Shown here in pieces: positions 17,895-40,410 of a stretch of DNA of 64,000 bases. Source of the DNA: an uncultured cyanobacterium (GTDB taxonomy: Bacteria; Cyanobacteriota; Cyanobacteriia; Cyanobacteriales; CAWUOF01); contig CAVUSO010000001.1 of the NCBI GenBank assembly GCA_963744145.1, positions 1,934,831 to 1,998,830 of the forward strand. The letters are read 5' to 3'. The position numbers and the translations under genes are program-made. A model generated the notes under the pieces. The model did no database searches and was not told the origin of the DNA. It worked only from the letters and a program-made list of their open reading frames with translations. Each line of letters starts with the position of its first letter. The first letter of the stretch is position 1.

Positions 17895-18160
17895 TGATGA
17901 AGTACAGTAAGATTTGGCGCTAATAGCGATAAGTTAAAGTCAATTGTGATTGATCTGTGTTGGTTGGGCGGGTTTATGATGTTGATCTATTTGTGTCAGA
18001 ATTAACTGGTGAACCCGCCCCTACAAATCCTGGTTTATTGTCCTCATAAATTCATCGACAATACATTTTTATGAGCTAGTAGGGGCGGGTTCACCGCTGA
18101 ATTTGCCACACACAAATAACTTTAATAAACCCGCCCAACCTCACAGATAACCTTGATGAA
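17895..18160 (+). repeat. MITE-like dispersed repeat (same family as 12583-12892)
   Basis: tgatgaagtacagtaagatttgg ... gatctgtgttggttgggcgggtttatgat ... ggtgaacccgcccctacaaatcctgg ... gtaggggcgggttcaccg ... aacccgcccaacctcacagataacc. Confidence 0.7.
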
Positions 18161-21300: not shown

Positions 21301-21426
21301 GATCAATCTTATCAAGTTACCTTTTATGCCGATACTTTTGACGAACATCCATCTTTGCGATTAATGACTTTTGGTGATCCTATTTTTGAGCTCCTGTTGC
21401 ATAAACGTTTAGCGTCAGCAACCTGA
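18301..21426 (+). CDS. PLD-family nuclease domain fused to SNF2/DEAD-like helicase (defence-associated)
   Basis: HxKxxxxD motif (HEKVGIISD) at the N-terminus. Helicase motifs I (DEVGLGKTIE), II (VLDEAHHARR), III (SATPMQ) and C-terminal helicase block (LLCTESASEGLNLQ, QRIGRIDRIGQ). Confidence 0.8.
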   Translation: MKKLRDRYWKIGYGSDEDNLIVDFYIPALECALQYDRKAGFFNSTILSRVARGLGALLANQGRMRLIMGCQFSPEDLQAVQQGYALRETLTHRLDQELTPPVNFAQLKHFEILSWLIQNEYLDIRIAIPLKPNGNPESSELVLDPKHLFHEKVGIISDVNGDRLAFNGSNNESIGGWQSNLESFHVFFSWDGGSDLQRVQHECDRFERLWNDELPNVRVFEIPTAVKQKLLNYTPNQKPDWNPQAEFNTSPITYLETINEFQISEEELQKEREQFTQLANIHHHPGCLDFSVKSIPIKPWAHQLKILRRIAAEFPRNALIADEVGLGKTIETGLILRYLLLSKKATRVLILVPASVQPQWQEEMREKFNLHFWSYGKNELVDPYQQSVAIAGNLWNQKNLILASSHLVRRKERMQELLNSEAWDLIVLDEAHHARRKSPQNHKDTPNRLLELMERLRTNTQALLLLSATPMQIDAIEMFDLIKLLGLKGHWEFPDNFCHYFATLSESPNKDMLNFWQTMSTDYFDHGGQPCSKIQKGLETSDRLLFYQLEDIWRNGQKITNPQKYLADDNFISASQRFLATNTPIKDLMFRHTRDTLREYFKRGLLAQDVPIREVFDHAIALEANREVHLYIAVSDYVRHFYRLAQKENRKALGFLMTLYRKRLTSSFYAIEKSLQRRLDYLLTQQGSLLGDDDYSDLEDADDAIIEGLESFMEPIDPKEIEYLQDLLHQFDNTGEDTKRSKFINKLRQEFLERDSAIIFTQYTDTMDYLRDILTQLYGSSVACYSGRGGEINYDGKWQIIPKEEIKRRFRDGEIKILLCTESASEGLNLQTCGVLFNYDMPWNPMRVEQRIGRIDRIGQKFSQVRIHNFYYDGTVEAKVYRKLRDRIQAFTTVVGNLQPILALVPTFIEKAVMSADPLEENVLLSEFEQTLDISPLQPALNDAVAMDVEADLTELRQPIPSSPFNAEIIEQVLTRSRLLQKAGIRFEKIAEKLWKLQLEDQSYQVTFYADTFDEHPSLRLMTFGDPIFELLLHKRLASAT

Positions 21427-21512
21427 AACAGGGTGAGTAAAGCCCACCCTGATCGATCTATTCTGCTCCGACAATTGGTGCAAATCCTTGACGTTGAACA
21501 TTCTCAGTCATA
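21427..21512 (+). repeat. about 85 bp direct duplicate of the putA 3' end plus downstream hairpin (att-like remnant)
   Basis: Near-identical to 33553-33645. Minus-strand reading gives ...TENVQRQGFAPIVGAE*, identical to the PutA C-terminus. Contains hairpin cagggtgagtaaagcccaccctg. Confidence 0.7.
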
Positions 21513-21540
21513 GTTCGCGATCGTCTTAACTTGGGGGTCT

Positions 21541-22044
21541 TTGGGTTTAGATCCTAAACTGATGCAAGTGACCTATAAGCAACAGGAAATCACCTTCAGA
21601 CCCAAAGAATATGCTCTGCTCCAACTATTTCTGCAACATCCTCAGCGCATTTTTAGCCGCAATACCATTATCGATCAGCTTTGGTCGATCGACCAATCGC
21701 CAACGGAAGCAGCCGTAACAACTTTGATCAAAGACTTGCGTCGTCGGTTAAAAGCCGCAGGAATTACCGAAGAAGTGATTGAGACAGTTCATGGGTTGGG
21801 ATATCGACTTACAACAGCACCAACAGTTGAAAAGAGCAGTTCTCCGACTTCTTTGGGAAAATCTAGATTGCCTGGATGTGAATCTGAATCAAAAATCGGG
21901 GAACTACCGAAAGTTTCAGAGGATAGTTTAGTAGAGCGATTTAGAGTGTCCTTAAAGCAGAGATTAAGAGTCTTAGAGGAAATGGAAGTCGCGCTACACC
22001 ATCAACTCAGGAGATCAGTTCAAATTCTCTTGTGCTGGCAATAG
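21541..22044 (+). CDS. stand-alone OmpR/PhoB-type winged-helix DNA-binding domain protein (no receiver)
   Basis: trans_reg_C-like segment EITFRPKEYALLQLFLQHPQRIFSRNTIIDQLW...VTTLIKDLRRRL...VHGLGYRL. Start codon is a non-ATG in the track; the true start may be the MQVTYK Met. Confidence 0.55.
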   Translation: MGLDPKLMQVTYKQQEITFRPKEYALLQLFLQHPQRIFSRNTIIDQLWSIDQSPTEAAVTTLIKDLRRRLKAAGITEEVIETVHGLGYRLTTAPTVEKSSSPTSLGKSRLPGCESESKIGELPKVSEDSLVERFRVSLKQRLRVLEEMEVALHHQLRRSVQILLCWQ

Positions 22045-22385
22045 TCAGCGATGCTACATTTGCAAAAAGACTTCAGCAGGAAGCACCACGATGGGGACTG
22101 AGGCTGGAAGTCATCAGCGATCGTTCAACAGTGCAACATCGATTAACACAAACCACCCCAGAAGTAATTCTGCTGGCTCTAGATGGTGATGGGGCGGACA
22201 ATCCCTTGGCGCTATTGCAAACAATAAAGGCAGATTATCCAGCCATGCCGATTGTCATCCTGTCAGATCCTGAATCAATGCGACGAGCATTTGCCGTTGG
22301 AGCCAATGATGTGCTTGGAAAACCTGTGGTTGAAGCCGAGTTGGTGACAAGGATGATCAGCCGAATCAAGCAATTAGGCCAATAA
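22032..22385 (+). CDS. stand-alone receiver-like (CheY-like) domain, partly degenerate acid pocket
   Basis: LAIVSDA...ILLALDGDG...IVILSD...GANDVLGKP matches the receiver topology but the N-terminal DD pair is reduced to SD. GTG start. Confidence 0.45.
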   Translation: MLAIVSDATFAKRLQQEAPRWGLRLEVISDRSTVQHRLTQTTPEVILLALDGDGADNPLALLQTIKADYPAMPIVILSDPESMRRAFAVGANDVLGKPVVEAELVTRMISRIKQLGQ

Positions 22386-22392
22386 GCAGATT

Positions 22393-22773
22393 TTGCTCAT
22401 TGACCATGAGGCTTCTGTTCGAGAAGTTTTGCAGCTTTGCTTAAGCAGTGTTGATGGTTGGCAAATTATATCCGTTGCTTCTATCCAAGCCGGCTTAGAA
22501 AAGCTGTGCATTGAGCGTGTAGATGCTATTCTTCTAGATACAGAAAACTTAGAAACTGATGGAATTAGTTTTATTAAAAAACTTAAAAATGACCCATTTA
22601 CTCGATCGATTCCAGTTATCTTCATTACAGCTAAGGCAAAAAGCTTTTTGTCGCATCAACTGCAAGCATTGGGGATTGCGGGTGTGATGGCGAAACCATT
22701 TAATGCCAGGACTTTACCGATTCAATTGGCTGGAATGTTGAATTGGAGTCTGGGTTCTAAATTTGTTGATTGA
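22393..22773 (+). CDS. stand-alone response-regulator receiver domain
   Basis: ILLIDHEAS...AILLDTENLETDGISF...PVIFITAK...GVMAKPF. TTG start. Confidence 0.5.
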   Translation: MLIDHEASVREVLQLCLSSVDGWQIISVASIQAGLEKLCIERVDAILLDTENLETDGISFIKKLKNDPFTRSIPVIFITAKAKSFLSHQLQALGIAGVMAKPFNARTLPIQLAGMLNWSLGSKFVD

Positions 22774-22926
22774 GCGATTCTTTATGATTTTATTTCTTGT
22801 TTATAAGGGCAGGGTAAACGCATCTAAATTGGGATAAATTGTCCTTGATAAAAAAGCACTGATCATGATAATCATTCAACAACTATCCTGGCTAACTCTC
22901 TTCATCTGAGGTAATGCTTCCATGTC

Positions 22927-23490
22927 TCAATGCTTTAAAATCACTTTGGCAGGAATCCCTATTGCAATTGAATTTGGCGGGATATCTTTGGTTACTACCG
23001 CACCAGCAGCAACAATAGAATTATCTCCAATTGTTACACCAGCTAAAATAGTTGCCCTAGATGCAATCCAAACATTATTACCAATAACAATTGGTTTATA
23101 TTCATGCTCTCTCGGATATTCTTTAACAGGCAAAGAGAAGTTGATCAGATTTTTTAAGCTTAAATATTCTGTGGGCAATTGCTCATTTTCCACCGCAGCT
23201 ATTTCATGCACTTTTAATCGACCAGTTTCCAGAATTACATAAGAAGAAATACTCACATATTGACCGATATCAATTCCACCTCCACCACCCATAACTACAC
23301 CATAATTAATAGATGTATAATCACCAATTTTAATTTTTTCAGGAGAGTACATTCTTGGCCACGCATATACTAATACTGATTTACCTAACTCCTTAACCAG
23401 AAGAGATAAAAATATATATCTGATATAGAGCAAGATGACATCGGTACTATTAAATATCCCTAGGGCTATTTTTTTGAATATGTTACTCAT
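22927..23490 (-). CDS. hexapeptide-repeat (left-handed beta-helix) acyl/acetyltransferase
   Basis: [48 protein letters not shown] hexapeptide repeats (WcaF/MAT-like). Confidence 0.75.
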
Positions 23491-23541
23491 AATCCATTTA
23501 ATTGCTAATGTTCAAAGTTCTCAGACTTGCTTAAATCTTTT

Positions 23542-24279
23542 TCAAAGTCTCTTGGCTAAAATAGTTACATATTTGAGATTTTCACCATTAAAAAAACTCC
23601 GATGATTATAAACATGAGTATCATGCAGTTTTAAAGTGCCTTCTGAGATCGCCTGACGGTAAAAGCGGATAAATTCAGGAGGATTACTTTGATTTTCGTA
23701 GCTAGTCTGGGCAATATTAAACATTACCCATGCCCCGGCTTGAATAAGATTCAATGCCAACTTAAAAGCATCAACAGGGATGTGATCGGAACTCAGAGCA
23801 GAACAACAGACTAAACAATTTAATTGTTGCTCTTTAATCCGGTTTTTGGTTGATTCTGATAACTGAGTTAAATCTTCAACGATATAATCTTGGTAAACCC
23901 CTGGACATTCTCTATTCGCGGCTACTGCTGCTTCAGGAACAATATCTATTCCGACAATAGCAGTAATACCCAATTTGGCTAATGCTTTACCAAATAAACC
24001 ACTACCCGCACCAAGTTCTAATATTTTGAGTTTGTCAATTGGTAAGCCTGTTTCTTTTACTTTTTCCACTAACAGAGATGACATGATTTCAGGCGATCGA
24101 TATTTGAGTATTTCAATAGCAATATATTCATACAACCCTGGAATACTATATACATCGCCATAGTCGTGTAATCTTAAGCGACGCTCTTGGCCATTTTGAG
24201 TAAGGAAAAAATACTCTTCATTAATAGATAAATTTCCTACATGATCGGGCAATCTGATTTGAAAATTAGTTTGAGTCAT
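23542..24279 (-). CDS. class I SAM-dependent methyltransferase
   Basis: Motif I ILELGAGSGLFGKALAKLG. Acidic residue after beta2 (GIDIVPEA). Confidence 0.7.
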   Translation of the reverse strand: MTQTNFQIRLPDHVGNLSINEEYFFLTQNGQERRLRLHDYGDVYSIPGLYEYIAIEILKYRSPEIMSSLLVEKVKETGLPIDKLKILELGAGSGLFGKALAKLGITAIVGIDIVPEAAVAANRECPGVYQDYIVEDLTQLSESTKNRIKEQQLNCLVCCSALSSDHIPVDAFKLALNLIQAGAWVMFNIAQTSYENQSNPPEFIRFYRQAISEGTLKLHDTHVYNHRSFFNGENLKYVTILAKRL

Positions 24280-24357
24280 AATATCAATTAGCTAAATTTT
24301 TGCTAGAGCTGAAGCAGGAAAAATCAATTGTCACCCAAGTAAAGAGTCGATTAATTA

Positions 24358-25050
24358 TTATCCTGTCGGAATTGCTAACGCTTTACCGTTATCGCTAGCA
24401 CCAATCTGTAAGATAAAAGGAATAGCTCTAATTACCCAATCTTGATCAGAAATGTAATTAGCTGCTTTTTCCTTACCATAGATAGTTTCTAAGGTATCAG
24501 TGTGAATTGTTCCGGGCCAAAGGGAAACTGTAGCCATACCAGATGGTAATTCTTGAGCAAAGGCTTTAGTTAATCCTTCAATAGCCCATTTACTAGCGCA
24601 GTAAGGAGTAGCATTAGCAGTGGTATAACGTCCCCAACCAGCACTAAAGTTAATAATTATTCCCCTATTTTGCTCCACCATTGCAGGGACAAAATGGCGA
24701 ATTACGTTAGCTACGCCTTTGATATTAATATCAATAACGCGATCGAATACTTCACTTTTAATTTTCCAGAGGGGCAAAAGTTCGTGAACGATACCTGCAT
24801 TATTTATGATTAAGTCAGGAGGTTCATATTGGGAGAGTATGGTTTTACTCCAAGCTTCTACTTGAGCTTCATTGGCAACATCTACAGAGGTAAAGTGATG
24901 ATGGGGCTGGGGGAATTGCTGTTGCAGATTTGCGATCGCTTCATGGTTAGTAGCACAACCTATTATAGTATGTCCTAACTGGATCAACTGTTCAGTCATT
25001 ACTCTACCTAAACCCCGACTTACGCCAGTAATTAGAATGATTTTGGTCAT
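24358..25050 (-). CDS. short-chain dehydrogenase/reductase (SDR) family oxidoreductase
   Basis: TGxxxGxG (ILITGVSRGLGRVM), NNAG, catalytic YxxxK (YCASKWAIEGL). Confidence 0.8.
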   Translation of the reverse strand: MTKIILITGVSRGLGRVMTEQLIQLGHTIIGCATNHEAIANLQQQFPQPHHHFTSVDVANEAQVEAWSKTILSQYEPPDLIINNAGIVHELLPLWKIKSEVFDRVIDINIKGVANVIRHFVPAMVEQNRGIIINFSAGWGRYTTANATPYCASKWAIEGLTKAFAQELPSGMATVSLWPGTIHTDTLETIYGKEKAANYISDQDWVIRAIPFILQIGASDNGKALAIPTG

Positions 25051-25059
25051 AATTATAGA

Positions 25060-26022
25060 TTAACCCACAGATAACAAGCTTCTGTTCGCAACACAGTAGT
25101 TGCTATACCAATAACTCATTGGCTTTGACCAAAAATATTGGGCATAACCTTCGCTCACAGCTTCACTACTTTCTCGGTACAGAAGAGAAGGAGAGTTATC
25201 AACCACATAAAATGTATGTCCTTGCCGATCTTGGTAGATCGGATTTTCTATTTTGGTGGCATGAGTACCTTGAATTGCTCTGCCGGTATCGGCTGCTGCA
25301 TCGATAATCCAGCCCGTAGATTTCATGGAATTAAGCATTTGCAAAGTAACAATTGGTGCATCAGATTCAGCTATTTCTACCGTATTAATAAAAATATCAT
25401 AATTTTGAAACTCTTGCTTGAGTAAATCCACATTACTTCTTCTACGCAACAATGGTTCGATTCCTTTACTAGCCAAATATTTTAATACACCATAAGCTAC
25501 ATTACCAGAACCAAATACTGCTACTTGGTCTTTTTCTATAATCCCGCCTCGCAACATAATTGCCTGCATAACTGAGGCATAACCAGCCAAAATACTATTT
25601 TTGTAGGTTATGTCTCTAGGAATATTCAGCTTTTCGGATTTTCCTTGATAAACGCGAATAGAAATTCGATTTGTCACATCAAAAAGTTGGAGCTTTTTCG
25701 GTTTAGCACAATGTTCTGTAAAGTGCTTTCCTGATGCACCAAACGGATGAATCCAACCAGCTAATCCTTGGTTTTCTCTAAAGTATTGATAGTCTTGGGG
25801 TTGAGGTACTTTAATACAGTAAATTACATCTGCCCAAGCAAAGAGACTTTCTCTGGAATAACCGCCAGCTTCTCCATACGCCCAATCGGGAATACCTAAA
25901 TTTTCTCCATAACCTTGTTCAAATCTACGTTCGTCTTCTGTGCTACAATAGGGTAAATCTTTCGGTAATAAACCGACTCTTTTTTCATTAGGGAAACTTG
26001 GCTTGATATAGGCAATCTTCAT
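25060..26022 (-). CDS. AlaDH/PNT-family NAD(P)-dependent enzyme (alanine dehydrogenase / saccharopine dehydrogenase / N5-(1-carboxyethyl)ornithine synthase-like)
   Basis: N-terminal KIAYIKPSFPNEKRVGLLP resembles the AlaDH/PNT N-terminal domain. Rossmann motif VAVFGSGNVAYG. Confidence 0.5.
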   Translation of the reverse strand: MKIAYIKPSFPNEKRVGLLPKDLPYCSTEDERRFEQGYGENLGIPDWAYGEAGGYSRESLFAWADVIYCIKVPQPQDYQYFRENQGLAGWIHPFGASGKHFTEHCAKPKKLQLFDVTNRISIRVYQGKSEKLNIPRDITYKNSILAGYASVMQAIMLRGGIIEKDQVAVFGSGNVAYGVLKYLASKGIEPLLRRRSNVDLLKQEFQNYDIFINTVEIAESDAPIVTLQMLNSMKSTGWIIDAAADTGRAIQGTHATKIENPIYQDRQGHTFYVVDNSPSLLYRESSEAVSEGYAQYFWSKPMSYWYSNYCVANRSLLSVG

Positions 26023-26039
26023 TTGATTTTCCTCAACTA

Positions 26040-27149
26040 TTAAAATTCTTGGTGTTGAAAATTTCTTCTGCCGACAAAGAAGTCCCAGTCTACATAACCT
26101 GAATTGAGCTTTCTGTCTCCTGTTGAGGGGTCAAAAGCTGTTCTTCCATGAAGGATTCTAAAGTTTTGGAAGAGTAGACAGTTATGTGGCTTCAGACGAA
26201 ACTGATATTGATAATCTGGTTTTTTGAGATAGCGGAAGAAAGTATTAAAAGCTTGGTAGAAATCTTCTAATTGCTCGAAGGGTAAATGAGGTCTACAGTT
26301 TCTTTTGCTAAATCGCACTGTACTAACATTACCATCTCGATCGCATTCCAGGATGGGAGAAGTGTTACAAAAACGATATTGATGATGGCGATCGACTAAC
26401 CAAAATTGTACGGGAGTTTCTCCTAATAGTTGAAAGTAATTTGGATAATCTTGGCGAAAGTCTTGAGCCACTCGAAATCCATCTACCAGAGTAGATTCAC
26501 CCCCGATTGCTTGGTGTTCTAAACAATAGAGAAACTGGACGAGATGATGTCCTCCCCAGTAACTGAGATCGTTATGGAGGGGTAAACTACATCCATCACG
26601 AGGAGGTAAAGATTCTTTCGTTTTGGCTTGGGGTTGTAGAGCAAATATTGTCCCGTAATCAACGTTATGAATTGGCCCAATAGATGAAATAAAAGATTCT
26701 AATTCGTCAGGTGGGATGTTTTCTAAAACGACGAATCCGAGACTAAATAATTGATCAATCCAAGAATTATCATTAATCGCCTGAACATCATAGCTTTTGG
26801 GCGATGGTAATTCTAGTTGTGTCCGATCCCATAAAATATAGCTCTCAGACTTTACTTGTGGTTGAGGATCGTAAGCATTCTTTAGTAACCAATCAACAGA
26901 GAATATACTACGATAGGCAGGAGTTTCATCCCAGTCAATGATTAAGGTTTCCCCATTGAACTCCACTGATAAAGGCTGCGGTTGTTCTGGGCGATCGCTA
27001 ATATTAGGATCGGAGAGTTGTTGATAGGGTGCTGGATACCGACAACTCGGACAATTTTCCCGTAACCAGATGTAATGAAAGCGTTTATCACCAACAGTAA
27101 TAAACTTTTCTGAGGTCATAGTTGTGGTTTTTTCTTTTTGAAGTTTCAT
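26040..27149 (-). CDS. Fe(II)/2-oxoglutarate dioxygenase, gamma-butyrobetaine hydroxylase-like (TauD/BBOX family with DUF971-like N-terminal domain)
   Basis: N-terminal FHYIWLRENCPSC (BBOX/DUF971-like). HxD...H facial triad region HNDLSYWGGHH...ILHGR. Paralog of 27166..28287. Probable real start at about 27119 (MTSEKF). Confidence 0.65.
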   Translation of the reverse strand: MKLQKEKTTTMTSEKFITVGDKRFHYIWLRENCPSCRYPAPYQQLSDPNISDRPEQPQPLSVEFNGETLIIDWDETPAYRSIFSVDWLLKNAYDPQPQVKSESYILWDRTQLELPSPKSYDVQAINDNSWIDQLFSLGFVVLENIPPDELESFISSIGPIHNVDYGTIFALQPQAKTKESLPPRDGCSLPLHNDLSYWGGHHLVQFLYCLEHQAIGGESTLVDGFRVAQDFRQDYPNYFQLLGETPVQFWLVDRHHQYRFCNTSPILECDRDGNVSTVRFSKRNCRPHLPFEQLEDFYQAFNTFFRYLKKPDYQYQFRLKPHNCLLFQNFRILHGRTAFDPSTGDRKLNSGYVDWDFFVGRRNFQHQEF

Positions 27150-27165
27150 ATTACTCTAGGATTTT

Positions 27166-28287
27166 TTACCGACTAAGAATAGATAAGCGACTGAGTAATT
27201 CTGTCCGTTCGATAAACGTACTTTGCATAAAGCGTTCTCCGGTATATTCGGTACGCCCATGTAGCACCCGATGGTTATCAAAAATCAGCAGATCTCCTGA
27301 ATTGAACTTGATCTTAACTCTATATTCATTGCAGTTACACAGTTCCATAAAGGTGCGGTATGCCTCGTAATAAGGCTTTATTATCTCTGAAGGGAAGTTA
27401 AAGGGCTGAATAGCACGCGAAGAAAAGCGAATTAACTTTACTTCGCCCAAACAATTGAGTTCGATAATCGCGCCTTCTCCCATTAAATCCGCATCAGTGT
27501 GTTGGAAGCGAAATTGTACAGGTAAAGTTGAGAGCAGTTTAAATTTCTCTGGGGCTTGTTGGCGTAATACTTCTGCTATTTTAAAACCATCAATCAGACT
27601 ATTCTCTCCTCCAGTAGCACCAGTGATTAAGTAGTGAAAGAGTAAATAAGCAGGTGGAGAAGCAAAATAAGATAAATCGGTATGGGGTAAAATCCTTAAA
27701 TTAGTAAACGCATCGGTTTCAGGATTCGCTACATTTTTAACATTATTACACTTACCCCAATAGGTTTCACGCACACAACCTAGCTGAGATGCTATTTCTA
27801 AGATAGTACCTGGCTCGGTAGGAACATTTTGTAGTACAGCAATTCCCTCATCACGTACAGCTAATAACCAGTCTTTCAGTTGGGCTTCATTCTGCCAAAT
27901 ATCGCGATAGTCAGCTTTGGTTATTGAAGTTGCTTTTTCTGAACCCCATAATTTAGGTTGCCAAGATTTGGACTGTGTTTTATTAGAGTAGGAATGTTCG
28001 CGTAACCAGAGCGAATCGAATTTGCTAACATGACTTTCATTAGCCCAGACAATTTCGATTTGTTGTTCGTGATTGATGCTGACTTGATCGGGATAGGGTT
28101 CAAGCGGAAGAGTCAAAGGATCGATGGTACGCTGACAGTTGACACGGGGGGTTGCTGGGCAATTGTCTCGTAGCCAAACATAATGAAATTGACTGTGAAA
28201 TCCATCTTCCCATTCAACCTGAAGCAAGTCTTTTTCAGTTTTCAGTTTGAGGACAGATCTATCTGAATTAGTTGCTACTGTTAACAT
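27166..28287 (-). CDS. Fe(II)/2-oxoglutarate dioxygenase, gamma-butyrobetaine hydroxylase-like (paralog)
   Basis: FHYVWLRDNCP, HTDLSYFASPP, RVLHGRTEY. Same architecture as 26040..27149. Confidence 0.65.
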   Translation of the reverse strand: MLTVATNSDRSVLKLKTEKDLLQVEWEDGFHSQFHYVWLRDNCPATPRVNCQRTIDPLTLPLEPYPDQVSINHEQQIEIVWANESHVSKFDSLWLREHSYSNKTQSKSWQPKLWGSEKATSITKADYRDIWQNEAQLKDWLLAVRDEGIAVLQNVPTEPGTILEIASQLGCVRETYWGKCNNVKNVANPETDAFTNLRILPHTDLSYFASPPAYLLFHYLITGATGGENSLIDGFKIAEVLRQQAPEKFKLLSTLPVQFRFQHTDADLMGEGAIIELNCLGEVKLIRFSSRAIQPFNFPSEIIKPYYEAYRTFMELCNCNEYRVKIKFNSGDLLIFDNHRVLHGRTEYTGERFMQSTFIERTELLSRLSILSR

Positions 28288-29281
28288 CGGTTTCTCCTGA
28301 TTGTGTCATTAATGTTTTAACGATTTCTTGCCAAGCTAGATCGCAAATTCGACTACGACTATCTTGGGTATTGGTGGCAATGTGAGGAAAAATTAAGCAA
28401 TTATCAAGCTTATGCAGAGGATCATTAACAGGTAGGGGTTCTGGTTCGGTGACATCTAACAGTGCCATCGCGATTAAACCCTTTTCTAAGGCTATATATA
28501 GGTGATCTTGATTACAAATTGCTCCTCTGGCAATATTGATAAAAATTCCCGATCGCTTCATCTTCTCAAATGCTTTTGTGTCAAACATATTTTGGCTAGA
28601 GTTGTTGAGAGAACAGCAGACGATCACAGCATCTGATTCAGTAAGCAGTTGCTCAAAACTGACATATTCAAGTGAATACTGATGTTCTAATTCTGGCTTC
28701 TGATGTGGAGAAAAATAGAGGATACGAGAATTAAATCCCACCAGACGTTTAACGATCGCACTGCCAATCTTACCCATACCAACGATCCCAATTGTCAGTT
28801 GTGATAAAGCAAACCCATCTAAATTCCACAAATAATATGGCGTTACATTATTATCACTTAGTTGGAGATTTTTGTCAATACGTCTAATCCCAATTAATAA
28901 AAGAGCGATCGCGTAATCGGCAATAGCATCTGTGGTTACTCCGGGTACATTAGCAACCTGAACACCATGTTTCTGACAAGCATTGAGATCGACATTTTCG
29001 ATCCCATTACTCATCACTGAAACTATTTTAAGAGTCTCTCCCGCAGCTTGAATTAAGGTGGCATCAATTCGATCTTCATAGGTGCATAAAATAGCATCAT
29101 AGTTGTTTTGAGTAACTTTGCTCAGTAGTTCTTGATAAGTCATCTGACGTTTTTCGGTAAAACAATCAATAGCAAAGTAATCGGGAAATTTTTCTCTTGA
29201 TTGCTGAGGAATCAGAGCAGTTATTAGAATTCGATAATGCACAATATTGGTTTTGGTTTTTACCTGTTCTAAGGGTTTCAT
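28268..29281 (-). CDS. D-isomer-specific 2-hydroxyacid dehydrogenase family (glyoxylate/hydroxypyruvate reductase-like)
   Basis: NAD-binding GIVGMGKIGSAIVKRL. Catalytic region ...FINIARG...HIATNT. Confidence 0.75.
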   Translation of the reverse strand: MKPLEQVKTKTNIVHYRILITALIPQQSREKFPDYFAIDCFTEKRQMTYQELLSKVTQNNYDAILCTYEDRIDATLIQAAGETLKIVSVMSNGIENVDLNACQKHGVQVANVPGVTTDAIADYAIALLLIGIRRIDKNLQLSDNNVTPYYLWNLDGFALSQLTIGIVGMGKIGSAIVKRLVGFNSRILYFSPHQKPELEHQYSLEYVSFEQLLTESDAVIVCCSLNNSSQNMFDTKAFEKMKRSGIFINIARGAICNQDHLYIALEKGLIAMALLDVTEPEPLPVNDPLHKLDNCLIFPHIATNTQDSRSRICDLAWQEIVKTLMTQSGETDVNSSN

Positions 29282-29300
29282 TTGCTGATGTTAGCAATGT

Positions 29301-29879
29301 TTATTTAACTGGGATAAATTGATATTGAGGTTTTGGTTGAGCAAAAATTTGTTTGACTATAGGGACAAAAAAATCTAGGTCGAAAGAGTCATAATTGGGA
29401 TCGAAGCTGTTTTGATCATATTTTTCACAGAAATCTATTGTGGCTTGATAATAGGGAGAATCTCGATATTTTTCTCGGACATCGCGATCGCCTCCCAGAT
29501 AGTGGGCGCAATAATACTTTTGAAACAAGGAGTGATGTTTAACTATCCAATAAGTCTGTTCTGACACATAGGGCTTAAGAATAGCAGCAGCCATTTCTCC
29601 ATGATTGTAAGGAGCTAAGATATCGCCAATATCGTGAAGTAAAGCAGCAGCAATTGTCTCGACGTTTTCACCTTCCCGAGCAGCTCTGGTAGCTGCTTGC
29701 AGAGAATGTTCATAACGAGTTACTTGGTAGCCATCAAAGGAAGTTTTCAATGGTTCTAAAGCTTTTAAAATCCGTTCTGGAACATCTTGTGTTGCTTCAG
29801 CGGCTAAGGCATATAGAAGCACAAAGTCTTCTTTTGTTCCATGTTCCATAGCAGTAAAATTAACTTGGTTCATGCTCAT
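29301..29879 (-). CDS. HD-domain protein (PhnZ/TmpB/MIOX-like mixed-valent diiron oxygenase candidate, or phosphohydrolase)
   Basis: HD motif AALLHDIGD with upstream His (YEHSLQAATRA) and downstream HH (VKHHSLF). About 190 aa, the size of PhnZ-like proteins. Confidence 0.5.
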   Translation of the reverse strand: MSMNQVNFTAMEHGTKEDFVLLYALAAEATQDVPERILKALEPLKTSFDGYQVTRYEHSLQAATRAAREGENVETIAAALLHDIGDILAPYNHGEMAAAILKPYVSEQTYWIVKHHSLFQKYYCAHYLGGDRDVREKYRDSPYYQATIDFCEKYDQNSFDPNYDSFDLDFFVPIVKQIFAQPKPQYQFIPVK

Positions 29880-31273
29880 ACCTCCTGAAAAAAAGGTGTT
29901 AAATTATTCGCTGGAGTTTCGACAAAAGGTAACTTTTGATTCTCGAAGAAATCTTCAACCTTTCCTAACTCACGAATAACTTCAATTTTTCCTTTGCTAT
30001 AAGCTATTTCCGCCGGATAATTATGGAGAGCAAAATTAGTTACGGAGTGATTGAAACCATAAGCTCCACAATTATAAATTACTAGGCGATCGCCTATTTC
30101 TACATCTTGAGGTACTTCCACATCTTCTACCATAATGTCTAAAGGTGTAGGTAGTTTTCCGGCGAGAGTTACTGTTTCGGTATTGAATTTCTCTTTACCC
30201 AAAACATCCATAAATTTGCTGGCTTTTTTCATAGACATAGATATTCTTAACAGTTGATGAATGCCACCATCCAAAATTAAAAACTTTTTGCCTTGGGATT
30301 CTTTGATGTCAAGAATTTCTGCAACATAAGAACCAGATTCGCAGACTAAATAACGACCTAATTCAAAAAAATAGTCGTATCGATAGGGATTATTATCACT
30401 AATATTCTGCATTTGCTTGCCAAATTCTTCAAGATTAAATTCGGCATCAATAGCATTGTAAGGAACACCCATTCCCCCACCGAAATCGACTATAGATATC
30501 AGATAGCCTTGATCTCGCAGACGATTAGCAATTCTAATAGTATTCTGACAAGAAGCAACCAATAGTTGGTAATCAAGAATATTACTTTCGGTAAAAATAT
30601 GAATACCTTTGAGGTTAATATTTGGCAGAGATACAATCTCCCCGATCGCTTCTGAAACTATCTGTTCATCAATCCCAAATTTACTAGCACTTTGGCAAAT
30701 TAATTGGATCGGAGCAGTTGATTCTGTATTCAGAGTACAACTACTACTTCCTTGACTTACTTCACAACTATTACTGGTGCGATATAAGGGATTAATTCTT
30801 ACCAGGATATCTTGAATGATTCCATATTTTGCTGCCAAAGAATTTAAACGACGTGCTTCATTGATAGATTCAACAACAATTAAACGAATGCCTTGTTTCA
30901 AGGCAAATGATAATTCTCGGTTGGTTTTCCCTGGACTTGTAAATACAATCTGTTGGGGAGAAAAACCAGCTTTAATAGCTGCAACTAATTCGCCAATAGA
31001 ACTAATATCTGCTGAAGCTCCCAGCTTAGCTAAATGATGACAAATAGACAAATTACTATTTGCCTTGAGAGTGTAATGAACTCGAAAATGCTCTGGCAAA
31101 AAGGTTGTCAAACTATTAAATTGACGTTCAATTTTGTCAAAGTCATAAAAATATAGTGGAGTTTCATATTGCCCAACTAATCTTTCAATTTTTTGGTGCT
31201 GCCGAGATGTAGATTGTATAAATTCAGTCATCATATTGATTGTTGTTGTAACATTGACCAGTGAACTGAACAT
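29876..31273 (-). CDS. PLP-dependent decarboxylase, Orn/DAP/Arg decarboxylase family 2 (fold-type III, LysA-like)
   Basis: PLP-lysine motif YTLKANSNLSICHHLAKLG. C-terminal beta-barrel motifs (CESGS, GAYGF). Confidence 0.75.
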   Translation of the reverse strand: MFSSLVNVTTTINMMTEFIQSTSRQHQKIERLVGQYETPLYFYDFDKIERQFNSLTTFLPEHFRVHYTLKANSNLSICHHLAKLGASADISSIGELVAAIKAGFSPQQIVFTSPGKTNRELSFALKQGIRLIVVESINEARRLNSLAAKYGIIQDILVRINPLYRTSNSCEVSQGSSSCTLNTESTAPIQLICQSASKFGIDEQIVSEAIGEIVSLPNINLKGIHIFTESNILDYQLLVASCQNTIRIANRLRDQGYLISIVDFGGGMGVPYNAIDAEFNLEEFGKQMQNISDNNPYRYDYFFELGRYLVCESGSYVAEILDIKESQGKKFLILDGGIHQLLRISMSMKKASKFMDVLGKEKFNTETVTLAGKLPTPLDIMVEDVEVPQDVEIGDRLVIYNCGAYGFNHSVTNFALHNYPAEIAYSKGKIEVIRELGKVEDFFENQKLPFVETPANNLTPFFQEV

Positions 31274-31421
31274 TTTGGACCAGGTGGTTTCAACCGCAGG
31301 CAGCTACAAAAACGAAATTTGCCTGTGCAGGTGACAAAACCCTTGATTGGTTAGTCAAGACTGATAATAGAGGAAAAATATAAGAAATATATGAGAAGGA
31401 CAAGATTTCCAATTCTCTTAA

Positions 31422-33215
31422 TCATTCCGCTTCCTGCTGAACGGGTAGCCTGAAATAAAAGGTGCTTCCTGCTCCCAACCCACTCTCTACCCAAATCTGT
31501 CCTTGGTGCTGTTGCACAATACTCTTGCAAATGGCAAGTCCTAACCCCGTTCCTCGCTTCTTTTGGGAATCCTGCACATCCACTTGCTGAAATCGACCAA
31601 AGATGGTTTCGAGTTTATCCGCAGGAATCCCAAGTCCCTGATCCTGAATGGAGAAGAGAATATAGGGTAGTGGGGTATGGATGTTTTCCCTGACTTTCTC
31701 GCTCTCCCAATCCTTCGCTTCGACAACCTCTGCTTTTACCCACACTGTACTATTAGCCGGAGAAAACTTGATGGCATTGCTCAACAGGTTGGTTAATGTT
31801 TGCACGATCGCATCTGGTGCAGCCCATACCGAGACGGTCAGCGGTGTTCAATCCAGATGGATTTTGGCAGCATCGGCGATCGGCTGTATGGTTTCAACTC
31901 CTTGCTGGATCAGATCCGTCACCTCACAAGCTGCCATCTCCAGCGCGGTTGTGCGAGACTCTAACCGCTCCAGATCGAGGATGTGATTAACTAATCGCAC
32001 CAGTCGCTCGCTATTATTGAGGGCGATCGAAATCAGATGGTTAAACTTTTCAGAATTGTTGTGATAGAGCCCTGATTCCAGGATGCCGAGAGAACCGTGA
32101 ATAGCAGTCAGTGGGGTTCGGAGTTCATGACTAACAATGGAGATAAATTCATCTTTCATCTGCTCGATCACATGGCGATCGCTAATGTCTTGAATTTGAG
32201 CAATAAAGTAGATCGGTTCTCCCTGGTGATCTCGGACAAGTGATAAATTCAACAGAGACCAAACCACATAACCTTGTTGATGGAAATACCGCTTCTGTAC
32301 TTGGTAGGTTTGAATTTCACCTGCCAGGACTCTTTGGATTTGCTCTAAATTAATGACCAGATCATCAGGATGGGTAATTGCTTGAAAGGTTTTGGTCAAC
32401 AATTCGGCTTGACTGTAGCCCAGAATTTCTGAAAGCGATCGATTGACGCGAATCAATTGACCTTCAAGTGCTATTAATGCAATACCAATGGGAGCATCTT
32501 CAAAAGCACTGCGGAACCGTTCTTCAGTACGTTGGAGTTCCTGGGTGCGTGCCGCGATCTGGTCCTCTAGCTCTCTGGAATAATCGGTTAAAATTCGCTC
32601 GGCTTCTCGTCGTTTCGTGATGTCTTGAAAGGCATTAATAGCATAGAGAACCTGCTCTACCGGATAAAGTTGATTGGTTCCTGCTTGGTAGATTTGATCG
32701 GCTTGAGACTGTCGTAAAGGCGACAAGTTGAAAATATTTCCTCCTCCTAAAATGGTTTCACCCACTTGATTGAGGAGAATTTGATTTCCAGTGGCATCAA
32801 AGACGCTGATTCCGACTGGAACATTACTCAGGAGCTTCTCAAATCGTCGTTCGCTCTTTTGCAGCGATCAGAACGACGTTTCAATCTGATGCGCCATCCG
32901 TTGAAAAGCGTTCGTTAGACCTGCGACTTCACTGACGACCGAGTTTTCGACTGGATCATCTAACTGTCCGGTGGCGATCGCCACTGCTGCTTGCTGCAAG
33001 CGATAAATCGGTCTGGCAATCCAACCAGCACTCAACATTCCTGTCCCCGCAGCGATGAGTAGAGTCAGCCCACACAAGAGCCATGTTCGCTGGGTATTAG
33101 CCTGAATTTTTGCCATGAAATCGGATTCGGGAATGATCACCACCACCAGCCAATCCAACCCGTATTGATCTTGGTAAGGAGTTACCTGGACAAACTGCCG
33201 CTGGTGGTTACTCAT
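31422..33215 (-). pseudogene. sensor histidine kinase (TM-HAMP-PAS-HisKA-HATPase) interrupted by two in-frame TGA codons
   Basis: Three consecutive same-frame ORFs (33215-32868 HAMP, 32765-31848 PAS+HisKA with SHELRTPLTAI, 31805-31422 HATPase with NLLSNAIKF...GLGL). The first two each end in TGA. No frameshift between them. Confidence 0.65.
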
Positions 33216-33363
33216 CAGCGTCAGTTGTTGGGTTATTTGCAGGGTGCTTCTCCTGTCTCGTTGCTAAAGAAGATAGATTGGAGGGAGGGATTCAGGATGA
33301 TTTATTGCCAAAATTGCTGTTGCAGTTGCTTAAAGTCTTTAAATTGCCACTCCCACCCCTAAA

Positions 33364-33548
33364 GCAGGGCTGTTTCATGCTCGATTCTCAGATAATCGAC
33401 CTAACCCCCCAACCCTCTTCCCTGCGAGGGAAGGGGGAGTAATTCTTATGGTTAAATTGATCGGATTTAATCAGAGTCATTCTGCTCCCCTTTCCTAAAA
33501 GGAAAGGGGTTGGGGGAGAGGTGTTCTGGTAGCATGAAACAGCCCTGC
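33364..33548. repeat. about 185 bp palindromic MITE-like element with 18 bp perfect terminal inverted repeats and internal G/C-rich hairpins
   Basis: gcagggctgtttcatgct ... agcatgaaacagccctgc termini. Internal ccccaaccctcttccctgcgagggaaggggg and ctcccctttcctaaaaggaaaggggttggggg hairpins. Confidence 0.6.
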
Positions 33549-33552
33549 TAAA

Positions 33553-33645
33553 ACAGGGTGAGTAAAGCCAACCCCGATCGATCTATTCTGCTCCGACAAT
33601 TGGTGCAAATCCTTGACGTTGAACATTCTCTGTTACTGTTCGCGG
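33553..33645 (+). repeat. putA 3' end / downstream segment duplicated at 21427-21512
   Basis: About 85 bp near-identical direct repeat. This copy is part of the intact putA gene. Confidence 0.7.
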
Positions 33646-36888: not shown

Positions 36889-37116
36889 ATGTTGACTTTG
36901 CAAGAAATTATTAAGTCTATTGATAGTCTGTCTATAAACGATCAGCAATATTTATTTGAGTTTCTGCGTAAAAAGCAGGAACAGCCTAAAGCAAATAATT
37001 TCTGGGCGGGTTTACAAAAATTTAGACAGACAATTCAACGTGAGGGAATTGTTTTTACTGATGAAGATTTTGCGGATTTGCGCGATCGCAGTCCTGGGAG
37101 AGAAATCGATCTATGA
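36889..37116 (+). CDS. type II antitoxin (VapB-like, uncharacterised family)
   Basis: 75 aa ORF immediately upstream of a PIN-domain gene, with 4 nt overlap. Confidence 0.5.
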   Translation: MLTLQEIIKSIDSLSINDQQYLFEFLRKKQEQPKANNFWAGLQKFRQTIQREGIVFTDEDFADLRDRSPGREIDL

Positions 37117-37544
37117 GTTTGAAGTTTTTACTTGATACAAATATCCTCTCAGAACCATCACGTCCTATTCCTAATGCTAATGTTCTAGCCAAATTAGATA
37201 TTCATCAGTCAGAAATTGCTGTCGCTAGTGTGGTTGTGCATGAGCTTTTACATGGTTGCTTGCGTTTACCAGAGTCAAAAAGACGAGAAAATCTTTGGGA
37301 ATATATTAATGAATCAGTTTTAAATTTACCAATTCTAAGTTATGATCTACATACGGCGCAGTGGCACGCGAATGAAAGGGCGAGGTTATCGAAGATTGGT
37401 AAAACTCCTGCATTTGTGGATAGTCAGATTGCGAGTATTGCTTACAGTAATAATTTAATTTTAGTGACTAATAATGTGCCTGATTTTCAGTTTTTCGATA
37501 GTTTAAAGATTGAAAATTGGTTCGTTAGTGGTGAGGATGGCTAA
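37113..37544 (+). CDS. vapC: PIN-domain ribonuclease toxin VapC
   Basis: N-terminal LLDTNIL PIN signature. About 143 aa. Coupled to the upstream small ORF. Confidence 0.75.
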   Translation: MSLKFLLDTNILSEPSRPIPNANVLAKLDIHQSEIAVASVVVHELLHGCLRLPESKRRENLWEYINESVLNLPILSYDLHTAQWHANERARLSKIGKTPAFVDSQIASIAYSNNLILVTNNVPDFQFFDSLKIENWFVSGEDG

Positions 37545-38165: not shown

Positions 38166-38381
38166 TTACTGTTTGCCATAGAACATAAAATTAATCTCCT
38201 CTGACTCATCGTCAAAATCATCAGCAATCCAAACGCGCCCTTCCCAAGCACCTGGAGTACGTGGCTCAAGTTTTCCCTGATCACTAAGCTCCAATGGTTG
38301 ATCAAAATCATCTGAACCACAATTTAAACCCATGATCGCCGCTTCCGAAAAAATTTCCCTTAAATCATACCAATTCACCAT
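38166..38381 (-). CDS. hypothetical small acidic protein
   Basis: ORF starting at the internal Met (MVNWYDLREIF...). The annotated longer N-terminus lies inside a repeat copy. Acidic C-terminal half. Confidence 0.3.
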   Translation of the reverse strand: MVNWYDLREIFSEAAIMGLNCGSDDFDQPLELSDQGKLEPRTPGAWEGRVWIADDFDDESEEINFMFYGKQ

Positions 38382-38557
38382 GAAGATACATTGATGTATA
38401 TTGATCTGTGGGTGAGGGTGGGTTTTGATGATTAGTAGGTAAATGTCAAACATCTCGGTGAACCCGGGCGGGTTTTTCTAATTAATTGGTAAATTTCAAA
38501 AATCTGGGCGAACCCGCCCCTACTACAGAAATCCGCAAATTGAGGATAAAATTGGTA
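38368..38557 (+). repeat. left half of a MITE-like element split by IS insertion
   Basis: Identical to 58765-58957 (...gaggataaaattggtag). Continues at 40288 after the IS. Confidence 0.75.
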
Positions 38558-40290: not shown

Positions 40291-40410
40291 AGGGGCAGGT
40301 TCACCAGTCAATTTTGCTACCAACAGATCACCATTATAAACCTGCCCTGACTTAACAGATCAACCTCAGATTAAGTGCAATTTCATAGTTAATTGGTATC
40401 AGCACCACCA
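40288..40410 (+). repeat. right half of the MITE-like element split by the IS
   Basis: gggcaggttcaccagtcaatttt...caacagatcaccattataaacctgccctg...tcaacctcagattaagtgcaatttcatagttaattggtatca matches 58958-59066. Confidence 0.75.

Follow-up and report, generated by a model that had tools for sequence, protein, structure and literature searches.

An apparently horizontally acquired operon islet between hmaA and putA of an uncultured cyanobacterium, flanked by a 98 bp direct repeat

Integrase-type islands insert at the 3′ ends of tRNA, tmRNA, and protein-coding genes; the target stays functional, its 3′ end is present twice in the form of direct repeats, and the foreign accessory cargo can be found in variable regions next to defence systems. 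Direct target duplications, typically 2–15 bp long, also flank transposons, IS elements, and MITEs. Among cyanobacterial chromosomal elements, the nifD, fdxN, and hupL elements (10–55 kb) interrupt open reading frames (ORFs), are bounded by direct repeats of 5–16 bp, and are developmentally excised with the recombinases XisA, XisC, or XisF. Illegitimate integration during natural transformation, either homology-facilitated or double illegitimate, has been described in Acinetobacter, Pseudomonas stutzeri, and S. pneumoniae, and the reported events usually delete or replace recipient DNA. Furthermore, in the transformation-induced merodiploidy of S. pneumoniae, donor DNA bridges two chromatids and leaves a duplication (Johnston et al., 2013; PMC3784515). 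In the present 64 kb window (the whole stretch of DNA analyzed, from an uncultured cyanobacterium), an insert of 11,838 bp (21520–33357, delimited by junction mapping) lies between the defence gene hmaA and putA with a 98-base duplication on either side; both of its ends fall inside genes, it carries a foreign signature, and it is devoid of integration machinery. We consider it somewhat probable that the insert was acquired horizontally, as an islet, through one illegitimate, i.e., non-site-specific, insertion, which would be an event of an ordinary kind with an unusually long footprint.

The direct repeat spans 21422–21519 and 33548–33644, with 90 of 97 positions identical and a perfect core of 55 nt. 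A repeat search of the window returned it as a family (D14) with two copies only (21423–21519 versus 33548–33644; 97 nt, 93% identity), and blastn aligned the copies over 80 nt at 97.5% identity (E = 1.5e-35). Ordinary putA ends excepted, a third copy was detected by blastn neither in the window nor in about 160 fetched loci (numbered L below). A hairpin-forming MITE of 185 bp (33364–33548) splits the right-hand copy after its first 6 nt; it is delimited by terminal inverted repeats (GCAGGGCTGTTTCATGC; a perfect inverted match of 17–19 nt) and a TAAA target duplication (33360–33363 and 33549–33552), folds at −103 kcal/mol, occurs once in the window, and was inserted later than repeat copy 2 was formed. 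With the MITE taken out, the repeat extends over 98 nt (21422–21519 versus 33358–33363 plus 33553–33644). The near-identity of two segments containing the putA 3′ end and a hairpin, reported in a preliminary description of this DNA, was hence reproduced at 97–98 nt and 93%; the coordinates given there (21427–21512 and 33553–33645, 85 bp) fall slightly short of its full extent. Within the repeat lie the stop codon of hmaA, a hairpin resembling a terminator, and the final ~20 codons of putA. In copy 1 (21422–21519), the last 2 nt and stop codon of hmaA are followed by a perfect 9 bp hairpin (21429–21451; −19.4 kcal/mol over 56 nt) and, on the minus strand, by the last ~20 codons of putA as a dead fragment ending in RTMTENVQRQGFAPIVGAE and a stop. 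In copy 2, the main part of which lies at 33553–33644 and the first 6 nt at 33358–33363, the hairpin is weakened and the final ~20 codons and stop of putA are functional. Inspection by eye located three mismatches in the hairpin part (21425, 21445, and 21450), none in the 55 nt core (21451–21505), and four within 7 nt at the right side (21506–21512).

Both copies encode the C-terminus IVGAE followed by a stop, an unusual putA ending of this lineage that is absent from 80 putA loci of other species and from L160, and the hairpin is homologous to those downstream of putA in L009, L036, L044, L071, and L074–L077. Since the IVGAE ending is common to both copies, they resemble a target-site duplication rather than a foreign attP, and judged from these sequences both look like derivatives of the lineage's own putA. 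Both inner junctions recur in an independently made short-read assembly of this organism (Logan ERR11571142), the contigs of which break within the perfect core (L085, 21476–22920; L165, 28260–33605), so that the structure did not arise as an artefact of assembly.

The left neighbour, hmaA (18301–21426, plus strand), encodes the SNF2/PLD-type helicase of a predicted Hma defence system (Pfam SNF2-rel_dom, Helicase_C, and ResIII) and is full length, its stop codon (21424–21426) falling within repeat copy 1. PADLOC identified its product as HmaA (6e-63; the PbeA, PLD_Helicase, and DrmD(-like) models were also matched), and the co-location of this predicted helicase with a predicted HmaB methylase (14500–17436; 3e-78) and HmaC ATPase (7580–10819; 6e-103) points to an Hma system at the left flank. 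HmaA terminates 8 aa past a C-terminal motif (SLRLM..G, then FE or IE ~4 residues on), and its C-terminus matches the ends of its closest homologues (56–70% identity). Because HmaA ends naturally, the Hma side looks like an undisturbed older neighbour of the insertion site, which speaks against the earlier alternative of a defence-island edge at the repeat. On the right, putA (33583–36558, minus strand; 991 aa) encodes a bifunctional proline dehydrogenase/P5C dehydrogenase (Pfam PutA_N, Pro_dh, and Aldedh), is full length and intact, and has its true 3′ end in repeat copy 2. It is best read as the right neighbour and the target of the insertion, and the duplication of its 3′ end is what has kept it intact; the horizontal-acquisition boundary suggested earlier at the putA terminus is borne out. 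The PutA of the window is 76–83% identical in amino acids to cyanobacterial PutA proteins, and the best nucleotide match of putA anywhere is 79%. In the synteny comparison proposed in the preliminary description, the neighbouring genes of the closest available PutA (83% identical) were different, with none in common with the window.

The insert begins with a 5′-truncated OmpR-family response regulator (21520–21999, plus strand), in which Pfam detected Trans_reg_C only and the receiver domain is missing. Homology to complete regulators starts at 21523, 3 nt past the end of repeat copy 1 and at codon ~111 of ~246, and from there on the nucleotide identity is 85% to the full-length regulators in L082, L083, and L084 and 92.6% to L161. 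The microhomology at this left junction is weak and imperfect (GTTCTAAG versus GTCTTAAC). Downstream of the regulator on the plus strand are a 22-residue Hpt stub (21934–21999), matching residues 6–27 of the Hpt in L083, and two stand-alone receiver ORFs, REC1 (22032–22385; a weak Pfam Response_reg match of 31.9 bits) and REC2 (22393–22773; 56.7 bits), the latter being 40% identical by tblastn to the receiver that follows Hpt in L082. The cargo of the insert is an intact nine-gene metabolic operon (22927–31273, minus strand), in which Pfam identified an Orn/DAP-type decarboxylase, an HD-domain protein, a 2-hydroxyacid dehydrogenase, two GBBH/TmpA-like dioxygenases, an AlaDH-like protein, an SDR, a methyltransferase, and a hexapeptide acyltransferase; the best NCBIfam matches of these proteins all fall under curated cut-offs, and homologous clusters are found in other genomic contexts. 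At the far end is a decayed, 5′-truncated sensor histidine kinase (31422–33346, minus strand) that is split into a dCache scrap with an in-frame stop, seen by frame translation (33245–33346), and, by Pfam, a HAMP ORF (32868–33215), a PAS-HisKA ORF (31848–32765), and a HATPase ORF (31422–31805). It aligns to the Gloeotrichia kinase in L082 at 83% nucleotide identity over 660 nt and 89% over 95 nt, and its dCache remnant (33346–33245) corresponds to residues ~94–127 of that kinase; once the MITE is removed, the remnant lies within ~11 nt of repeat copy 2, and the kinase is cut at residue ~90. The Pfam assignments agree with the gene inventory of the preliminary description (an ORF with Trans_reg_C only, two receiver ORFs, nine minus-strand metabolic genes, and a split histidine kinase). 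The position and orientation of the kinase in the insert are unlike those at other loci, where it precedes the regulator on the same strand (L082) or follows it on the same strand (L091–L093), and the donor or the insert must have been rearranged, a point that weighs against the explanation favoured here.

The GC3 of the two-component-system remnants is 0.39–0.54 (0.43–0.54 for those of the kinase) versus 0.23–0.33 for host genes (0.24 for putA), and the regulator and kinase orthologues in L082 and L083 have values of 0.43–0.49. The GC3 of the operon is host-like (0.25–0.34), so that composition alone marks only the two ends of the insert as foreign, and the GC and skew profile, a check advised in the preliminary description, is flat. 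The HIP1 octamer (GCGATCGC), which is abundant in cyanobacterial genomes, is sparser in the insert (0.58 per kb) than in putA (2.0), the Hma region (1.5), or the right flank (1.1). In other, distant cyanobacterial lineages, decaying pieces of the module show 83–93% nucleotide identity to the window, whereas putA reaches at most 79%. The contexts of the module or operon are unrelated (recO/ppdK in L086; PBP or recQ with mscS in L083 and L161; that in L082 differs as well), and the module occurs elsewhere without the ends of the insert and without putA. With its patchy distribution and affinities unlike those of its flanks, the enclosed DNA (21520–33357) appears to have been acquired horizontally from another cyanobacterium, and GC3, nucleotide affinities, and junction mapping together uphold the earlier view that the repeats bound a discrete segment of this kind.

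We infer the ancestral empty site, the joining mechanism, and the order of events as follows. Originally, hmaA and putA would have been convergent neighbours, 31 nt apart, with a common hairpin between them. The insert may have been a random linear fragment from another cyanobacterium, comprising the operon with portions of its two-component regulatory system on either side and broken at one end in the response-regulator gene and at the other in the sensor-kinase gene. The regulator end would have joined 62 nt inside putA and the kinase end 2 nt before the hmaA stop codon; because these two joins overlap by 98 nt, that stretch would now stand on both sides as a long target-site duplication. 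Each fragment end most likely joined a different sister or polyploid chromosome copy, so that hmaA and putA would both have kept complete 3′ ends. Afterwards, the crippled regulators would have decayed through frameshifts and internal deletions while the operon stayed intact, the MITE would have landed in the right-hand copy, and the two copies would have drifted to 93% identity. Both repeat edges coincide with the two insert ends, which one insertion explains and separate events could produce only by coincidences within ~2 nt. The distribution of mismatches, three at the left end, four at the right, and none in the core, is unlike simple neutral drift of an initially identical duplication, and the best explanation would have to invoke mutagenesis at the junctions, gene conversion of the central part, or crossing over of alleles at a later time. 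Since a 55 nt perfect core is still common to the copies, RecA-dependent recombination could precisely delete the islet.

Fragment ends that cut donor genes at random, the lack of element machinery, weak and imperfect microhomology, and the one-off nature of the event would all fit illegitimate integration in transformation, as would the intact hmaA and putA. However, a 98 bp target duplication is no described hallmark of that process, and there is no sign of a homologous anchor at this locus. In a brief survey of the literature, no case of such a duplication from illegitimate integration in bacteria came to light, and to our knowledge it is not a documented regular outcome. Merodiploidy (PMC3784515) is similar in that one donor molecule pairs with two different chromatids, with duplication of the intervening recipient DNA; it differs in being homology-driven via IS861 fragments and in duplicating 100–900 kb, whereas the joins here are non-homologous and the duplication is 98 bp.

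The preliminary description read the repeats as attL and attR of a site-specific integration. In this case the element would have carried an attP mimicking the putA 3′ end and later lost its tyrosine or serine recombinase, and direct repeats that rebuild the 3′ end of a conserved gene (97–98 nt, 93%, putA intact), together with foreign accessory cargo adjoining a defence system, are indeed what such islands display. We nevertheless judge this origin very improbable. As stated in the preliminary description, no integrase lies in the segment; Pfam scans of most ORFs of at least 100–110 aa across the 64 kb window found no integrase or other site-specific recombinase, nor an excisionase or a remnant, and the intergenic space of the insert consists entirely of gaps of ~150 nt and the MITE, which leaves too little room to hide a recombinase remnant. 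No tRNA or other Rfam RNA was found, and the target is not a tRNA gene. Inside each copy, where a non-coding attP arm would be expected, a gene is cut mid-ORF (regulator codon ~111 and kinase residue ~90), so that loss of an integrase would need a deletion ending exactly at an att boundary. Moreover, a second gene, the convergent hmaA, also has its stop codon within the repeat; the IVGAE ending in both copies fits duplication of the recipient's own target and not an element-borne mimic, and no such element was seen at putA in the 80 putA loci of other species. The nifD, fdxN, and hupL elements share with this locus short direct repeats at a gene of a cyanobacterial chromosome, but those elements interrupt the ORF and use Xis recombinases, whereas here the gene is intact and no recombinase is present. 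Transposition likewise leaves a direct target duplication, of which the MITE with its TAAA is a textbook example; the 11.8 kb insert, by contrast, has a 98 nt duplication, no transposase by Pfam, and no terminal inverted repeats (end-versus-end local alignment score of 19 versus 16.7 ± 2.3 for shuffles).

Readings without site-specific recombination were also weighed against a single illegitimate insertion. An unlikely one is that the illegitimate event took place earlier in another strain, and that the islet with one 98 nt copy circularized in a conspecific strain and re-integrated, by a single RecA crossover of the Campbell type, at the putA end of an empty hmaA/putA site. The 55 nt core seems sufficient for RecA-dependent recombination, and if two slightly different alleles had crossed over within it, the mismatches would be distributed exactly as they are; the lineage-specific IVGAE ending in both copies would also be expected. 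Yet the account adds steps and leaves the origin of the structure unexplained, since two illegitimate junctions are still needed once. It is quite improbable that the repeat is the scar of a local rearrangement, in which a module already beside putA was tandemly duplicated (from regulator codon 111 to putA minus 62 nt) and its left copy mostly deleted or replaced by Hma, or, in a variant, the Hma island brought a putA-end fragment at its edge. The junction of the putA end with the regulator interior does resemble the novel join of a tandem duplication, in a region where MITEs, an IS110 element, and eroded genes attest to rearrangement. However, at least three events would be required, the deletion or insertion endpoint in the left copy must agree to ~2 nt with the position of the kinase/repeat junction in the right copy, and the HmaA C-terminus is natural, neither fused nor truncated. 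Furthermore, no other scrap of a first copy lies left of 21422, matches of the window to homologous loci occur only inside the insert, and the sole repeat family linking the insert to the left flank is I15, an inverted match of 31 nt at 71%. Least likely of all is a templated filler, in which the putA end nearby served, through template switching or break-induced synthesis, as template for the 98 nt left copy while break repair linked the Hma region with the truncated regulator: source and copy are only 12 kb apart and the four mismatches in 7 nt beside the junction would suit error-prone repair synthesis, but the left edge must match the opposite kinase/repeat junction by chance, and long templated insertions are, as far as we know, poorly documented in bacteria.

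Beyond this locus, a single illegitimate insertion raises the conjecture, which we hold to be rather doubtful, that duplications of this kind are a regular footprint of integrase-independent uptake of foreign operons in polyploid, transformable cyanobacteria, the fragment ends joining different chromosome copies at nearby positions and the resulting repeat making the islet precisely excisable and re-integrable by RecA. If this were true, an operon could circulate within a species like a cassette, without mobility genes of its own. The only mobility gene found is an IS110 transposase (39141–39962), located ~2.6 kb beyond the start of putA, and with its MITEs, this IS110 element, and eroded genes the region as a whole is rearrangement-prone.

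A direct repeat of 97 nt was detected by a repeat search of the window in two copies of 93% identity, one beside hmaA (21423-21519; copy 1) and one at the 3′ end of putA (33548-33644; copy 2); the copies match in blastn with E = 1.5e-35, and a third copy is absent from the window. Copy 2 is interrupted, 6 nt within its left end, by a MITE (33364-33548; 185 bp), which is the sole copy in the window; its terminal inverted repeats (GCAGGGCTGTTTCATGC) are perfect over 17 nt, TAAA is duplicated, and it folds into a hairpin of -103 kcal/mol. These three features replaced a reading of the stretch from the kinase remnant to copy 2 as junk. With the MITE taken out, the repeat comprises 98 nt (21422-21519 vs 33358-33363 plus 33553-33644) and the enclosed DNA 11,838 bp (21520-33357). 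Two different inner segments of the MITE recur, one in a Scytonema locus (L056; 41 nt, 95%) and the other in a Nostoc locus (L072; 40 nt, 87.5%).

Copy 2 is the genuine putA end, and copy 1 is an isolated putA-end fragment, reading ...RTMTENVQRQGFAPIVGAE* on the minus strand. The near-identical two-copy repeat reported in the preliminary description is thus confirmed, and the contrary case named there, a widespread dispersed element, does not hold for a repeat with two copies only. In approximately 160 fetched loci, blastn matches to the repeat were confined to normal, more diverged putA 3′ ends, and the 98 nt unit was ruled out as a dispersed repeat (n = 2 copies, with outside matches being ordinary putA ends). 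The seven mismatches between the copies are unevenly placed: three are in the hairpin part, four fall inside 7 nt (21506-21512), and a core of 55 nt (21451-21505) is perfect. Independent short-read contigs of the same organism span the inner junctions (L085, 21476-22920; L165, 28260-33605), both breaking within the perfect core. Because both inner junctions were recovered in an independent assembly, the structure of repeat and insert is not an assembly artefact.

The Pfam domain content of the bounded segment bears out the earlier inventory of an orphan OmpR DNA-binding domain, two stand-alone receivers, a nine-gene metabolic operon and a decayed sensor kinase. At the left end, an ORF with only Trans_reg_C represents a truncated OmpR-family regulator whose receiver domain is missing; full-length regulators of Gloeotrichia echinulata (L082) and two metagenome contigs (L083, L084) align at 85% nucleotide identity beginning at 21523, i.e., 3 nt past the repeat end, at codon ~111 of ~246. 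The Hpt gene that follows the regulator in L082 and L083 is reduced to a 22-residue stub (21934-21999). At the right end, the kinase persists as HATPase, PAS-HisKA and HAMP ORFs and a dCache scrap (33245-33346), which aligns with the L082 sensor at residues ~94-127, contains an in-frame stop and ends at most ~11 nt from the repeat. Since the regulator is truncated at codon ~111 and the kinase is cut near the repeat, both inner junctions are mid-gene breaks; both truncated genes point inward. The left breakpoint is mapped to within a few nucleotides and the right one to ~11 nt. The left junction (21517-21524) reads TTCGCG, ATC and GTCTTAAC in succession and holds GCGATCG, a near match to HIP1, the octamer GCGATCGC that is abundant in cyanobacterial genomes. 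The putA sequence continuing at copy 2 (GTTCTAAG) is similar to that of the regulator at the join (window, GTCTTAAC; L082, GTCCTGAG), a possible case of imperfect microhomology in which the origin of 3 nt is uncertain. The place and orientation of the kinase in the insert are unlike those in L082 (kinase before regulator, same strand) and in the more distant loci L091-L093 (regulator before kinase, same strand). Single and double inversion models of the donor gene order were tried, and none fits without extra deletions.

Both flanking genes are complete. HmaA (18301-21426) belongs to an Hma defence system identified by PADLOC together with HmaC (7580-10819) and HmaB (14500-17436), and its stop codon is located 2 nt within copy 1. 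An exhaustive profile search indicates that HmaA ends 8 residues past its C-terminal motif, and its closest homologues (56-70% identity) terminate 4-9 residues past the same motif. The Hma (helicase-methylase-ATPase) system is complete. The HmaC-HmaB interval is invaded by a DUF7680 gene and two Uma2 endonuclease genes (11279-12582) and a YhaV-type toxin gene (12923-13369, minus strand); MITE-like inverted repeats lie at 12637-12727, 13968-14119 and 17927-18140. The putA gene (33583-36558, minus strand) encodes 991 residues with PutA_N, Pro_dh and Aldedh domains. Subtracting the insert and one copy of the repeat yields a putative empty site in which hmaA and putA would face each other across 31 nt that contain a single hairpin. 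This hairpin resembles those directly downstream of putA in eight loci of other cyanobacteria (L009, L036, L044, L071 and L074-L077). Neither repeat hairpin was called by a simple terminator scan, as the T-run is too short; given this result and the homology to T-rich hairpins 3′ of the putA of relatives, the hairpin is labelled terminator-like only.

Both copies encode the ending ...IVGAE*, which occurs in none of 80 putA loci of other species nor in the closest relative (L160), where IEG.., IAG.., IDG.. or IQG.. is found instead. This common ending indicates that both copies derive from the putA of this lineage, as expected of a duplicated target; an attP brought by an outside element would not be expected to match the local putA so closely. 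No operon, Hma or regulator genes lie near putA in the 80 loci, in which PutA identity is 76-81% and synteny is already lost, so that the comparison speaks neither for nor against an insertion. A kinase downstream of putA in two Coleofasciculaceae loci (L068, L079) was considered as a conserved adjacency and judged not orthologous: it matches the window kinase at 43-49% in the HAMP region and ~30% in PAS-HisKA, vs 77% for L082. Upstream of putA, none of its neighbours is shared with the 80 loci or L160, so putA resides in a region that is variable on both sides. A VapBC-like toxin-antitoxin pair (a small ORF and a PIN-domain gene; 36889-37544) lies immediately upstream of putA.

Several lines of evidence agree in pointing to a foreign origin of the insert, at least for its ends. 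Within the window, GC3 is 0.23-0.33 for host genes (putA, 0.24), with higher values only in phycobilisome genes, ClpP and a few such as EamA, AraC, Uma2a and HmaB. The regulator and kinase remnants have values of 0.39-0.54, and their orthologues in L082 and L083 of 0.43-0.49. Operon genes are host-like (0.25-0.34), their L086 homologues have comparably low values, and the foreign signature therefore rests chiefly on the two insert ends. The compositional check proposed in the preliminary description was thus informative only in part: profiles of GC fraction and GC skew are flat, and gene-wise GC3 separates the regulator and kinase ends but not the operon. HIP1 density in the insert is approximately half the window average. 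Nucleotide identity to the window is 86-93% for eroded scraps of the module (regulatory genes plus operon) in Oscillatoriales MAGs (L161-L164) and L083 and 83-89% for the Gloeotrichia kinase and regulator; the best match of the conserved putA in any collection searched reaches 79% (83% at the amino acid level). Elsewhere, the operon or module occupies unrelated contexts, namely a recO-ppdK interval (L086), a larger cluster containing NRPS-like genes (L088), or a position between PBP or recQ and mscS (L083, L161). A metagenome scan with the kinase yielded relatives at 45-52% only, with no close relative of the window; these show the order usual for this two-component family, with regulator, kinase and then receivers on one strand. 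Parallel decay of the regulator and operon module is seen in other Oscillatoriales, with scraps 80-93% identical to the window at the nucleotide level: in L083 (10001-12557), the regulator and Hpt persist along with four scraps of the operon, and L161-L164 (10001-10489, 15201-15445) retain a regulator stub of 162 residues and, from the genes for the acyltransferase and the 2-hydroxyacid dehydrogenase, scraps of 50-100 nt.

The cargo operon (22927-31273) comprises genes for an Orn/DAP-type decarboxylase, an HD-domain protein, a 2-hydroxyacid dehydrogenase, two GBBH/TmpA-like dioxygenases, an AlaDH-like enzyme, an SDR, a methyltransferase and an acyltransferase. All of its proteins score under the curated NCBIfam cut-offs, below which the best-scoring models are TmpA and gamma-butyrobetaine dioxygenase for the two dioxygenases and PhnZ/TmpB for the HD protein. 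Homologous clusters, mostly annotated as hypothetical, occur widely among filamentous cyanobacteria (Okeania, Moorena, Symploca, Roseofilum, Leptolyngbya, Spirulina, and Scytonema) and form a variable family. The decarboxylase, AlaDH-like protein, SDR and methyltransferase recur in the family of L086-L090, and accessory genes vary (ATP-grasp and DUF2785 in L086; NRPS-like A-PCP genes, sulfotransferase and PhyH in L088). This cluster family is uncharacterised, may merit biochemical study and is a reasonable separate lead. A short-read Logan contig of the same organism (L081) matches the window over 5,349 aligned columns at 99.94% and differs from it by one indel. Over positions 2237-3198 of L081 (25060-26022 in the window), gene calling splits the AlaDH-like gene into two ORFs, of 65 and 205 residues, whereas the window has an intact gene of 320 residues. 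Either one of the assemblies carries a sequencing error or the heterogeneity is real.

The repeats had been proposed to be attL and attR of a site-specific integration. The absence of an integrase, as originally remarked, was verified: Pfam scans of most ORFs of 100-110 residues or more revealed neither an integrase nor an excisionase or transposase within or next to the insert, mobility genes across the 64 kb are limited to one IS110 transposase gene (39141-39962), and tRNA, tmRNA and Rfam RNAs are absent. The locus shares with an integrase-type island only the direct repeats by which the target gene is kept whole; the recombinase is missing, and no defined element has these ends. Transposon tests also gave negative results, including a search for terminal inverted repeats at the insert ends (score 19 vs 16.7 ± 2.3 for shuffles). 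The att interpretation is thus not upheld, given truncated ORFs at the insert ends and two repeat copies from the lineage's own putA. Later loss of the recombinase from an integrated island would need a deletion stopping exactly at an att edge, and the truncated ORFs would have to serve as att arms. Separate events might also have produced the arrangement, i.e., tandem duplication followed by deletion, later arrival of Hma with a putA scrap, or templated filler. Each such model would have to place an independent breakpoint at most ~2 nt from the kinase/repeat junction and conflicts with the natural HmaA terminus. The same terminus counts against the alternative, also suggested earlier, that the repeat marks the edge of the defence island.

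A single illegitimate joining of a random linear foreign fragment at the hmaA/putA convergence is the simplest history accounting for all edges by one event, and it is favoured here with slightly better than even confidence. The regulator end of the fragment would have joined 62 nt inside putA and the kinase end 2 nt before the hmaA stop. These positions would overlap by 98 nt, and the overlap would become the direct duplication, owing to which both gene ends are intact. Target duplications as long as 98 bp are, to our knowledge, an uncommon outcome of illegitimate integration, and a search of the literature for long duplications of the target following illegitimate recombination turned up no directly relevant case. 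Such an overlap would arise if the two fragment ends joined different sister or polyploid chromosome copies. In pneumococcal transformation, interchromatid integration of donor DNA likewise leaves a duplication, but it is homology-dependent (PMC3784515). The four clustered mismatches near the left junction need a special explanation, namely junction-associated error-prone synthesis, central gene conversion or allelic crossover. Campbell-type RecA re-integration from a conspecific donor is a reasonable secondary step, which would neatly account for mismatches at the repeat ends alone. Under the single-joining history, the locus works like a genomic islet gained via illegitimate recombination, a known and ordinary kind of event whose footprint here is unusually long and well resolved.

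A duplicated gene end around foreign DNA is insufficient evidence of site-specific integration, and target duplications can be told apart from att sites by mapping the sequence directly inside and outside the repeats. In this cyanobacterium, the locus offers a clean natural case of a whole operon gained beside a defence system without an integrase. In annotation, the regulator and kinase ORFs should be treated as pseudogene fragments, the putA-like 20-codon fragment (21458-21519) should not be annotated as a gene, and the segment should carry neither the label of a prophage nor that of an integrative and conjugative element (ICE).

Other repeats in the window were also recorded. An insertion of 1.7 kb that carries the IS110-family gene (minus strand) divides a dispersed repeat of ~300 nt into halves at 38367-38558 (100%) and 40291-40401 (96%), as compared with the intact copy at 58766-59066; shorter relatives occur at 590-676, 14024-14134 and 54759-54960. 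The WD40 region of a Ser/Thr kinase-WD40 gene (898-3069) is partly duplicated upstream (1-590), and the repeat families of positions 1-3070 show a spacing of ~2481 nt and 88-95% identity. Furthermore, two adjacent, overlapping genes with von Willebrand factor A (VWA) domains are tandem paralogues (60436-62971), with repeat blocks of 257 nt at a spacing of 1285 nt and 76-82% identity.
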